From a virus: a DNA stretch of 17,786 bases. Of the stretch, positions 5,582 to 6,114 are shown one piece after another. The stretch's first letter is position 1, and each line of letters begins with the position of its first letter. The stretch is from the UHGV virus genome UHGV-0019208; one strand, 5' to 3'. The position numbers and the translations under genes were made by a program. The notes under the pieces were generated by a model, which did not search any database, was not told where the DNA came from, and saw only the letters and a program-made list of their open reading frames with translations.

Positions 5582-5701
5582 AACTTATCCTCAGAGACAA
5601 CAAATTGATAATAATGTCCTATTCAAATGGCTAATGATATGACATAAAAAAAGAAAAATGCAATGTACTACAAGAATATCAGTAAACGTTTCTAGCGCGC
5701 G

Positions 5702-5720
5702 CTCGTATCCCCGCCACGCC
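5702..5720 (-). other. Candidate cos site (19-nt cohesive-end region) of the P2/186 type
   Basis: Minus strand reads GGCGTGGCGGGGATACGAG. As I remember them, the P2 and 186 cohesive ends are GGCGAGGCGGGGAAAGCAC and GGCGTGGCGGGGAAAGCAT, so the first 13 nt match the 186 form. Sits in a 533-bp intergenic region with flanking palindromes and repeats. Confidence 0.5.
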
Positions 5721-5743
5721 TGCCCACTTTATGCAGTGGTTTT

Positions 5744-5757
5744 CATGCAGCTGCATG
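5744..5757. repeat. 14-bp perfect palindrome catgcagctgcatg next to cos, within a pair of 11-bp direct repeats tttcatgcagc (5741..5751 and 5823..5833)
   Basis: Read directly from the sequence. Candidate terminase or host-factor recognition elements. Confidence 0.6.
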
Positions 5758-5801
5758 ACATGAGCAAAAGCCCGCCATTTCTGGCTGGTCTAAGCATAGA
5801 C

Positions 5802-5816
5802 GATCCTCGATCGATC
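5802..5816. other. Cluster of three GATC (Dam) sites within 15 bp, about 85 bp from the candidate cos
   Basis: gatcctcgatcgatc gives GATC at 5802, 5809 and 5813. The prophage carries its own Dam methylase (10345..11202). Confidence 0.7.
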
Positions 5817-6114
5817 ATGCGATTTCATGCAGCATAGTCATGCACTGCCATGGGAAGTTAACGTATCTGAATAATCGCTTGAAAAACGAACATATGGGCT
5901 TGCAAAGATGAAAGCCCGCTTGAGCGAAAAGTGGAAAATCAACATGTTACAAAGCTTGAAAATTACTTTTGTTCTTGAAAAATCAGCCCAACCATTACTA
6001 TAGTATTATCTAAATTGGTTAATGTGCCCTGAAATCACCGGAAAATTCAGCTATAACGGCGTATAGATATTAATTAACTGAAATACTAAAAAATTATATT
6101 TAAACGGAGTTAGT

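Follow-up and report, generated by a model that had tools for sequence, protein, structure and literature searches.

The DNA analysed here (the window) is a 17,786-nucleotide stretch of UHGV virus genome UHGV-0019208, and by its sequence the phage is a Felsduovirus-like E. coli prophage of the P2 family. Its gene order is the terminase large subunit TerL, the portal, a HEC-06/GmrSD-like cargo gene, the cos site, a PD-T4-7 cargo gene, DinI, gpA (7934-10348) and Dam, which is identical to that in Fels-2. TerL (gpP; 963-2729, plus strand) matches the Pfam families Terminase_6N, Terminase_6C and Terminase_5 and the PHROG terminase large subunit, and the portal (gpQ; 2726-3763, plus strand) matches Pfam Phage_portal and the PHROG portal, with 60% identity to P2 and 186 and 82% to Fels-2. 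The terminase is of the P2 type, cos is located after portal gene Q and before the accessory region on the gpA side, and gpP and gpQ (963..3763) are the packaging genes that act on the cos at 5702-5720. The small terminase subunit gpM is encoded outside the window. Of 5426 complete E. coli genomes, 47 carry the intergenic region with cos in identical form and 1216 (22%) have a match to it, mostly at 80-90% identity. An Rfam search of 5500-6200 gave no match at E <= 1. An ORF that crosses cos (5658-5837, 59 aa) was rejected as spurious, since it has no family match and overlaps the conserved non-coding cos module.

Defence cargo flanks cos on either side. The cargo on the portal side is a HEC-06 candidate defence protein of the GmrSD family (DUF262/DUF1524; 3800..5581, minus strand), which matches Pfam GmrSD_N and GmrSD_C and PADLOC HEC-06 (E = 7e-75), and whose gene has a GC content of ~32% compared with 50-56% for the phage core. 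Between cos and the DinI/gpA genes is the defence protein PD-T4-7 (6115..7173, plus strand), which matches the PADLOC model over its full length (E = 3e-144) and has no match in Pfam or NCBIfam. The cos module forms a GC-richer island between these two AT-rich defence cassettes. The relatives recovered for the PD-T4-7 cargo are near-identical copies only, and different cargo is found at the same cos-adjacent place in Fels-2, SEN8 and other loci. The gpA-cos-gpQ interval has been described as a defence hotspot of P2-like phages (PMC9122126).

The region upstream of the PD-T4-7 gene (5878..6004, plus strand) is outside the conserved cos block and carries the three cttgaaaa motifs that an earlier note on this DNA had pointed out; CTTGAAAA is present at 5878, 5955 and 5974, and there are no further copies in the window. 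All three copies are within 104 bp, and 22 of 200 shuffles also reach three copies, so the count itself is not significant. A promoter scan found its best site, TTGAAA-18-TATAGT, at 5975-6004 (10 of 12 matches) in this region, and a second promoter-like site at 5956-5983 likewise uses a copy of CTTGAAAA. The repeats are thus part of the cargo DNA and coincide with candidate -35 elements upstream of the PD-T4-7 gene.

The segment 5693-5845 is very probably the cos site from which an E. coli prophage of the Felsduovirus type (P2 family) packages its DNA; in this reading GCATG arrays would serve as recognition motifs and a GATC pair would be dispensable for terminase recognition. The earlier note had proposed a cos region here, and these ~150 bp do align, base for base, with the cos sites that the P2 and 186 records annotate and with the corresponding junction of P4. 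The elements follow the same order as in the P2, 186 and P4 junctions over about -125 to +27 (counted from the predicted cut), and positions -40 to +26 are near-identical to 186 and P4. The 19-nt candidate cohesive end of the note (minus strand, GGCGTGGCGGGGATACGAG, 5702-5720) is the homologue of the annotated P2 and 186 cos and of the P4 genome junction, and is predicted to be cosN with a 5' overhang. Its counterparts in the alignment are the annotated ends of P2 (GGCGAGGCGGGGAAAGCAC) and 186 (GGCGTGGCGGGGAAAGCAT), whose records begin at the cohesive end, and the 19 bases that open the P4 record, which are the same as those of P2. The first 13 of its bases are the same in 186, and it has the pattern GGCG(A/T)GGCGGGG followed by 7 nt. 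On the minus strand the predicted nick separates 5721 from 5720, and on the plus strand 5701 from 5702. The same 19-mer is found in Fels-2 and in more than 100 related loci, and the equivalent position in the SEN8 record is labelled 'putative cos site'; public Felsduovirus records go no further than such a putative label.

The flanks of cosN are also shared with the family. The gcgcgcgc flank was described correctly, as GCGCGCG(C) at 5695-5702; its CGCGCGC (5695-5701) makes up the left flank (5693..5701, minus strand) and corresponds to the yGCGCGC that follows cosN in P2, 186, P4, Fels-2 and satellites. The left edge of the conserved module is at ~5693, and column conservation collapses past +27. 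Next to cosN on the other side is the element ACCACTGCATAAAGTGGGCA (5721..5740, minus strand), which contains a short inverted repeat, CCACT/AGTGG, that a scan detected as a hairpin at 5724-5739. Both AAAGyGGGCr and AAAACC are near-invariant family-wide. High conservation among 104 distinct clade arms is confined to -125..+27 and collapses in the cargo on either side, and 51 representatives behave likewise. The same cos architecture spans prophages from Enterobacterales to Betaproteobacteria, as well as 47 distinct P4-like satellite arms. Ziermann and Calendar (1990), in the findings that later papers relay (PMC5694545, PMC9594776, PMC9122126), described a 55-bp cos core conserved in P2-family phages and cos as the sole homology between P2 and P4.

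The palindrome pointed out in the earlier note is real and perfect, with a length of 16 bp (TCATGCAGCTGCATGA, 5743-5758) rather than 14, and the two tttcatgcagc copies are present as TTTCATGCAGC at 5741 and 5823. Aligned across the family, the palindrome and the repeats are copies of a family-wide GCATG motif array. The palindrome and the first repeat copy constitute a proximal inverted GCATG pair, TCATGCAG and CTGCATGA (5743..5758), which matches the TGCAnnTGCAT(t/g)AAAACC of 186, P4, Fels-2, Betaproteobacteria prophages and satellites. The central dinucleotide of the pair is variable, and only 5 of 108 distinct arms have the palindrome in its perfect 16-bp form; its perfection is a lineage accident. 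The second repeat copy belongs to a distal array (5816..5845, minus strand) of three GCATG motifs (5816-5820, 5826-5830 and 5839-5843) spaced 10-13 bp apart. This array marks the outer edge of the conserved cos module, with conservation collapsing beyond about -125, and it is found in P2, 186, P4, Fels-2, Betaproteobacteria prophages and the 47 distinct P4-like satellite arms. Both CATG and TGCA are ~6-fold enriched in 39 representative arms. GCATG is depleted across the window (29 copies, compared with 54 +/- 9 expected), and five of the 29 lie within 5744-5843. The likely role of the GCATG motifs is terminase binding.

The spacer between the two arrays contains a GC-rich inverted repeat followed by a T run (5766..5788, minus strand), a terminator-like hairpin that is degraded in the window. 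Its clade consensus is GCCCGCCAG-nn-CTGGCGGGC-TTTTGC. Folding gives -21.8 kcal/mol (z = -4.7) for the Fels-2 hairpin versus -9.7 kcal/mol (z = -1.2) for the window copy. In 186, P4 and other lineages this place is taken by an inverted repeat of the CCAG..CTGG type. A candidate IHF-type site in the spacer was dropped, since by eye it has at least three mismatches to WATCAANNNNTTR.

As a working model, the phage terminase would nick in a staggered manner and leave the 19-nt 5' overhang GGCGTGGCGGGGATACGAG. Recognition would rest on a one-sided arm of ~125 bp that consists, outermost first, of the three GCATG motifs (5816-5843), a 50-bp spacer with the GC-rich hairpin, the inverted GCATG pair with AAAACC (5743-5758) and the AAAGyGGGCA box. 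The CGCGCGC box would lie on the opposite side of cosN from this arm.

The GATC cluster reported in the earlier note is present as well (5802..5816), with sites beginning at 5802, 5809 and 5813, namely 5813-5816 (-96), 5809-5812 (-92) and 5802-5805 (-85). All are on one side of the predicted cut and 82-96 bp from it, and one of them reads TGATCG, which is one of the P1 hexamers (PMC10028697). GATC is not enriched window-wide (60 sites, with about 64-68 expected). The triplet spans 11 nt, the next tightest in the window spans 74 nt, and a comparable triplet appears in only ~1% of Markov-simulated windows. Across 39 representative cos arms GATC is 3.1-fold enriched, and the flanks are not. The -96 and -85 sites, 11 bp apart, are conserved in the clade, and the -92 site is private to the lineage of the window; in 51 representative Felsduovirus-type helper arms the frequencies are 82% at -96, 78% at -85 and 2% at -92. 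The GATC columns of the pair have conservation values of 0.95 and 0.90 in these arms, whereas the intervening 7 nt score 0.66 and the 10 nt that follow 0.68. The pair is conserved as strongly as the packaging motifs. Among the distinct arms, 71 of 125 spacings between adjacent GATC sites are 11 bp. The two conserved sites are under clear constraint in helper phages, and a pure packaging model leaves this strong constraint on both tetramers unexplained. The arms of P2, 186 and P4 have no GATC in the alignment.

Satellites provide a natural dissection of the cos site. Six P4-like satellites from two sequence families have a cosN that is one base off that of the window and identical to that of many clade helpers. 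These satellites are probably packaged by Felsduovirus-type helpers, because of the cos identity and the shared host species. Compared with the window, their distal array is 94% identical, their proximal element 77-84% and their cosN with its flank 93-96%, but the spacer reaches only 38-42%. The GCATG arrays, the proximal box and cosN are shared with helpers, and the spacer with the GATC pair and the hairpin is found only in helpers. The satellites have neither the GATC unit nor the hairpin, and their own terminator is placed upstream of the distal array. GATC is absent from all six satellite arms and from 1 of 111 helper arms. GATC is therefore not common to all DNAs recognised by one terminase type, since these six satellites and the two relatives L010 and L025 are without it.

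The phage-encoded Dam of the earlier note is borne out by the gene at 10345-11274 (minus strand), a Dam-family N6-adenine methyltransferase (PF02086; TIGR00571; RefSeq 'DNA adenine methylase'). These coordinates are those of the longest ORF, which overlaps the start of gpA; the RefSeq version is 858 nt. The protein scores 321 bits against TIGR00571 (cutoff 115), its alignment with E. coli Dam covers the full length (2g1p, E = 2e-73), and both DPPY and LKWAG are kept. It also matches DpnM (4e-34) and T4 Dam (6e-18). The protein has the D12-class fold, with the DPPY catalytic motif and a similarity to GATC-specific Dam enzymes along its entire length, and is probably specific for GATC. Whether the GATC content of the arm goes with the presence of phage dam was evaluated on 160 portal-anchored loci, and no association is left when near-identical relatives are set aside. 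Of the dam-less clade members 94% have the conserved pair, as do 84% of those with dam, and with the near-identical E. coli/Salmonella group excluded the number of GATC sites is equal (1.94 versus 1.88, p = 0.96). L010 and L025 carry dam and have an arm without GATC. The literature search found no paper in which a P2-type cos is tied to GATC or Dam, and none relevant to terminase and Dam methylation. The earlier note had also suggested methylation control of the flanking cargo promoters. This is unlikely: the only good promoter-like site (5975-6004) is ~160 bp away from the cluster, and a scan of both strands found no promoter-like site overlapping the cluster.

What the GATC pair does in helpers, if anything, can be read in several ways. 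It is possible, although we would not favour it, that GATCG-N6-GATCG is a site for a helper or host DNA-binding protein or is context for the adjacent terminator, with GATC incidental and methylation irrelevant. Conservation extends one base past each GATC (GATCG, GGATCG), the unit lies directly upstream of the strong, clade-conserved terminator-like hairpin, and the satellites miss both unit and hairpin. This would fit a helper-specific role such as shielding cos from gpA-side transcription. However, there is no known candidate protein, and in other lineages the phased pairs are found elsewhere relative to the hairpin, which a GATC-specific reader explains better than a position-tied site.

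It is also possible, although again not favoured, that the triplet has no function, in which case the two older sites are passengers in a slow-evolving block and the third is a chance gain. Because the block is conserved as a whole, some conserved tetramers are expected. Additional sites (-104, -92, -70 and -40) have been gained or lost among close relatives, the -92 site is restricted to the near-identical relatives of the window (L087 and L088), and several phages have lost single sites. Against this, only the GATC tetramers exceed 0.9 in the spacer, with neighbours at 0.45-0.7 (51 representatives), phased pairs recur in unrelated sequence contexts, and the -92 and -40 sites each took two substitutions from the clade consensus.

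Rather doubtful is the proposal that the phased pair is a non-essential, helper-specific methylation sensor, read by SeqA binding to the hemimethylated pair or as a Dam mark, that modulates the use of cos or transcription across cos by the recency of replication. SeqA prefers paired sites on one helix face. The spacing of 11 bp is one helical turn, within the range of about one to three turns between at least two GATC sites that would be expected of a SeqA-type target. Both tetramers are fixed while the bases between and after them vary, and they are kept where the adjoining third GCATG is lost (L040, L108, L308 and L341). Pairs with the same phasing occur at -50/-40 in Rahnella and Pectobacterium prophages and at -88/-77 in L063. 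GATC pairs are rare in the sampled Betaproteobacteria prophages, whose hosts are generally without Dam. On the other hand, the statistics are weak because the phased pairs have only about three independent origins, the pair is not associated with phage dam, P2, 186 and several lineages with an E. coli range are GATC-free, and no paper was found that connects GATC or Dam with a P2-type cos. The conserved unit also slightly exceeds GATC (GATCG, GGATCG), and therefore a sequence-specific protein site is equally possible.

A more far-reaching form of the sensor is a long shot. Here the phased pair (-96/-85, with -50/-40 and -88/-77 elsewhere) would be a recurrent, helper-specific methylation-reading module in the recognition arms of many P2-like cos sites in Dam-positive hosts. 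SeqA recruitment when the pair is hemimethylated, or a changed terminase affinity when it is fully methylated, would gate the packaging of freshly replicated circles, and satellites would escape the gate. If true, Dam-timed packaging would have evolved independently a second time, besides P1 pac, and helpers and satellites would have a new axis of conflict.

The least probable reading, and a very unlikely one, is the P1-like one raised in the earlier note, in which cleavage of cos needs a Dam-methylated GATC cluster, as the P1 pacase does with methylated TGATCA/G, and dam is carried to secure methylation: the rarity of the triplet in simulated windows, the enrichment of GATC in the arms, the packaging motif-like conservation of the -96/-85 sites, the Dam-family gene in the gpA operon and the TGATCG hexamer would fit it, but an obligatory dependence of this kind appears unlikely because the pair is independent of dam (L010 and L025 carry dam without it), P2, 186 and P4 have the cos core but not the pair, the six satellites with Felsduovirus-type cosN and motif arrays are likewise without it, and the sites are one-sided and distant from the cut.

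The analysis establishes the homology of the site, its motif architecture, how it is conserved and that GATC and dam are not associated. As far as its sequence goes, the site is an ordinary P2/Fels-2-like cos between two anti-phage cargo genes. The main value of the analysis is in annotation, since it fixes cos and its ~150-bp module in a prophage type whose cos block has a match in 22% of complete E. coli genomes. It also sorts out which of the striking motifs are family packaging signals, and it delimits the two defence-cargo slots that flank cos. If the GATC pair is read by Dam or SeqA, methylation-timed packaging would extend beyond P1.

Compared with P2, 186 and P4, the site has the same 19-nt 5' end beginning with GGCG(A/T)GGCGGGG, yGCGCGC on the portal side and, on the gpA side, the AAAGyGGGCr box, TGCAnnTGCAT with AAAACC, the GC-rich inverted repeat and three distal GCATG motifs, and it is placed likewise between gpQ and the gpA-side accessory genes. 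It differs in the last seven bases of cosN, which are ATACGAG in the window and AAAGCAC or AAAGCAT in the others, in the perfect 16-bp palindromic proximal element, in a spacer that has the conserved GATC pair, a private third site and, in the clade, a terminator-like hairpin, and in being flanked by cargo on either side. Fels-2 and other Felsduovirus prophages of Salmonella, Klebsiella and E. coli share the gene order, an identical cosN, GATC at -96/-85 and dam upstream of gpA, but have other cargo on both sides of cos. Fels-2 itself has GATC at -104 and -40 and not at -92, its hairpin is intact (-21.8 versus -9.7 kcal/mol) and its palindrome is imperfect.

P1 pac is a 161-bp site with seven TGATCA/G hexamers inside it, and its cleavage is promoted by full Dam methylation (PMC10028697). 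The window resembles it in having clustered GATC in the region of the packaging site, one TGATCG and its own Dam. However, P1 packages by the headful mechanism from pac, with its seven hexamers within 161 bp, whereas the window has two or three sites on one side, 82-96 bp from the cos cut, and these are missing from satellites and relatives with the same cos core. The only GATC sites in the cos module are those at -96, -92 and -85, compared with about seven hexamers inside the packaging site of P1.

In lambda cos the order is cosQ-cosN-cosB, and the small terminase subunit recognises repeated R sites. By analogy, the window has a nicking site and a one-sided arm of short repeats at roughly helical spacing that would be suited to binding of the small terminase subunit, but there is no sequence similarity and the overhang is 19 nt rather than 12 nt. 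The motif arm of the window belongs to the end that, in P2, is reported to enter the capsid last. With the gpQ-cos-gpA hotspot of P2-like phages, as far as it is described in PMC9122126 and in the account of Dodd and Egan (1996) given in PMC5694545, the window shares variable, AT-rich defence cargo adjoining cos; nothing essential differs, and the window has one single-gene system on each side of cos.

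The feature is an ordinary P2-family cos site, correctly identified by the earlier note, and it lies in a known hotspot. The proposed cohesive end, the minus-strand 19-mer GGCGTGGCGGGGATACGAG at 5702-5720, adjoins GCGCGCG at 5695-5701. The GenBank entries for P2 and 186 begin at an annotated cohesive end; that for P4 opens with the 19 bases found at the start of P2. When the record ends of these three phages were joined and the junctions aligned to the minus strand of the window, the match was colinear from about -125 to +27, counted on the minus strand from the first cosN base. 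By this homology the nicks should fall at 5721/5720 on the minus strand and 5701/5702 on the plus strand; the SEN8 record labels the equivalent position merely "putative cos site". The functional cos module appears to span about 150 bp, because among 104 distinct arms (cos flanks on the gpA side) of the Fels-2-type clade conservation is high solely from -125 to +27 (window 5845-5693) and breaks down in the cargo to either side. A 59-aa ORF (5658-5837, plus strand) spans cos, and several public phage records (hits H1, H17 and H20) label the corresponding block "hypothetical protein" or "unknown"; these ORF calls are probably spurious.

The window is a Fels-2-type prophage of the P2 family. Its plus strand encodes gpP, the terminase large subunit (963-2729), the portal gpQ (2726-3763) and a 352-aa protein assigned to PD-T4-7 by PADLOC (6115-7173). 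The minus strand encodes a GmrSD-family protein assigned to HEC-06 by PADLOC (3800-5581), a DinI/Tum-like protein (7348-7653), the replication protein gpA (7934-10348) and a D12-class methyltransferase (10345-11274). Each cos-side cargo slot is thus filled by a single-gene defence candidate, and a type IV-like (modification-dependent) nuclease family, GmrSD, is carried by a phage that also bears dam. Fels-2 has the same gene order but other genes in both cargo positions. The two cargo genes are AT-rich: their GC content is 31-37%, compared with 50-56% for the phage core and 45% for the island that the cos block forms between them. The locus is the cos-adjacent gpA-gpQ hotspot of Rousset et al. 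2022 (PMC9122126); its portal-side slot was noted before by Dodd & Egan 1996 and Nakayama 1999, according to a passage of PMC5694545. Of the complete E. coli genomes, 47 have an identical copy of the intergenic region and 1216 of 5426 have a match to it, mostly of 80-90% identity. In E. coli G4/9 (L167, NZ_CP060073 2.994-3.007 Mb) the same cos and cargo segment lies in a decayed prophage, where a truncated portal gene is joined to gene D and the ogr region beside ybjL. The 47 identical copies thus include some remnants in which both defence genes survive.

The same cos layout is found in prophages ranging from E. coli to the Betaproteobacteria, and in satellites. The comparison drew on 160 related loci gathered through a portal alignment, 119 through a cos DNA pattern, and 80 P4-like satellite loci through Psu. 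Three GCATG motifs spaced 10-13 bp (about -123 to -96) are followed by a spacer that holds a GC-rich inverted repeat, a proximal inverted pair TGCA-nn-TGCAT with AAAACC (-38 to -19), an AAAGyGGGCr box, cosN and yGCGCGC. CATG and TGCA are about six-fold enriched in 39 representative arms. The five GCATG copies of the window's arm lie at 5744-5843. Window-wide the motif is depleted, with 29 copies against 54 +/- 9 expected from shuffles, which could mean that the genome avoids the packaging motif outside cos, or could be mere compositional bias.

The perfect palindrome reported near cos is present, as TCATGCAGCTGCATGA, but is 16 bp long (5743-5758) and not 14 bp; the two TTTCATGCAGC copies are found at 5741 and 5823 as described. 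The palindrome is the proximal inverted GCATG pair; of the two repeats, one is the proximal half-site and the other distal motif 2. The middle of the pair varies, the perfect 16-bp form is seen in just 5 of 108 distinct arms, and its perfection in the window is a lineage accident. Palindrome and direct repeats belong to the family's conserved motifs and are putative terminase recognition elements, because these motifs are what helpers and satellites share. In a passage of PMC9122126, cos is described as the sole homology between the two.

The clade spacer has a strong, conserved terminator-like hairpin facing transcription that arrives from the gpA side (window 5766-5788 and, in the related locus L003, 4070-4110, both minus strand). 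Its folding energy is -21.8 kcal/mol in Fels-2 (z = -4.7), and in the window, where it is degraded, -9.7 kcal/mol. Where the hairpin lies, 186, P4 and lineages further removed have an inverted repeat of the CCAG..CTGG type, whose changes appear to compensate one another. There is no Rfam match within 5500-6200.

The GATC cluster lies at 5802, 5809 and 5813 (-85, -92 and -96 in P2 orientation), as the earlier note had it. The window has no overall GATC enrichment (60 sites, about 64-68 expected), and this triplet is by far its tightest; about 1% of Markov-simulated windows hold a similar one. Among 51 representatives (<85% identity) of the Felsduovirus-type helper arms, GATC is present in 82% at -96, 78% at -85 and 2% at -92. 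Column conservation is 0.95 at -96 and 0.90 at -85, against 0.66 in the seven bases between these sites and 0.68 in the ten after. The triplet thus consists of two clade-conserved sites 11 bp apart and a private third. The conserved pair is kept where the bases between its sites have been completely replaced, and also in arms that have lost the adjoining third GCATG motif. Pairs phased at 10-11 bp also occur at other positions in further lineages: -50/-40 in prophages of Rahnella and Pectobacterium, -88/-77 in L063. GATC is 3.1-fold enriched in the 39 representative arms and not in their flanks. The pair is under constraint. The alternative pairs are located between hairpin and proximal motif. 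They belong to P2-like lineages without dam (L063 and the Rahnella, Pectobacterium and Serratia prophages L050, L055, L056, L058, L072 and L073), which have 3-4 GATCs in the arm, at differing positions.

This constraint, on a phased pair kept by helpers and not by satellites, is the mildly interesting remainder. Most of the probability is shared by a methylation-independent protein or terminator context and by simple inheritance. A Dam/SeqA-linked modulatory element is an improbable reading of the pair.

Methylation-sensitive control of the cargo promoters, also proposed, is not supported, because no promoter-like site was found to overlap the GATC cluster. The only good sigma-70-like site, TTGAAA-18-TATAGT at 5975-6004, is predicted upstream of the PD-T4-7 gene, and a second candidate lies at 5956-5983. 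Each takes its -35 element from a copy of CTTGAAAA, whose only three copies in the window are those listed earlier (5878, 5955 and 5974). They sit in cargo-specific DNA outside the cos module, and this cargo was recovered only as near-identical copies. Between cos and the PD-T4-7 promoter, the cargo-specific DNA has a hairpin, GGGCTTGCA/TGAAAGCCC (5896-5928), and a minus-strand terminator-like site (5928-5915), which may form a boundary terminator of the cargo cassette.

The phage does encode its own Dam. The methyltransferase scores 321 bits against TIGR00571, gives a full-length alignment to E. coli Dam (E = 2e-73) and conserves DPPY and LKWAG; it is a genuine Dam-family enzyme, with GATC specificity predicted from this similarity. 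The dam stop overlaps the gpA start by 4 nt (10345-10348, ATGA-type), which suggests translational coupling of methylase and replication initiator in an early operon.

Satellites provide the most telling test of a role for Dam. A DNA-pattern scan found six P4-like loci of two sequence families (L267, L256, L365, L285, L315 and L277) with the Felsduovirus-type cosN GGCGTGGCGGGGCTACGAG in place of the P2/186 type and with an alpha-type primase, a P4-type integrase and Psu/Delta-like genes. Compared with the window they reach 94% identity in the distal array, 93-96% over cosN and its flank and 77-84% in the proximal element, but just 38-42% in the 50-nt spacer. None of the six has a GATC in its arm, whereas only 1 of 111 helper arms from the same scan lacks one (Fisher p = 2e-9, the loci being non-independent). 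Their cos mimicry implies packaging by Felsduovirus-type terminases; if that holds, the GATCs would be dispensable for recognition and cleavage. The satellites copy both GCATG arrays almost exactly and not the spacer, where one family has additional TGCAT and ATGCA motifs. One such satellite, of classic P4 layout and with SIR2 and ATPase cargo adjoining cos, occurs in eight complete E. coli genomes; the copy in E. coli S21 (L369:9001-9230, NZ_CP010230) is integrated beside ssrA.

No arm GATC is present in P2, 186 or P4, or in 46 of the 47 distinct P4-type satellite arms. Within the clade, phage dam does not predict arm GATC content. The phages with dam have the pair in 84% of cases and the dam-less ones in 94%, dam-less meaning no homologue in at least 3 kb beyond gpA, with a dam elsewhere in the phage possible. 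Mean site number is 1.88 and 1.94, respectively (p = 0.96), outside the near-identical E. coli/Salmonella group, and two dam-carrying relatives (L010 and L025) have no arm GATC. The comparative evidence contradicts a strong Dam dependence of packaging like that of P1, which the note had raised as a testable idea. In P1 seven hexamers lie inside the pac site (PMC10028697), whereas the GATC sites of the window lie 82-96 bp from the predicted cut and on one side only.
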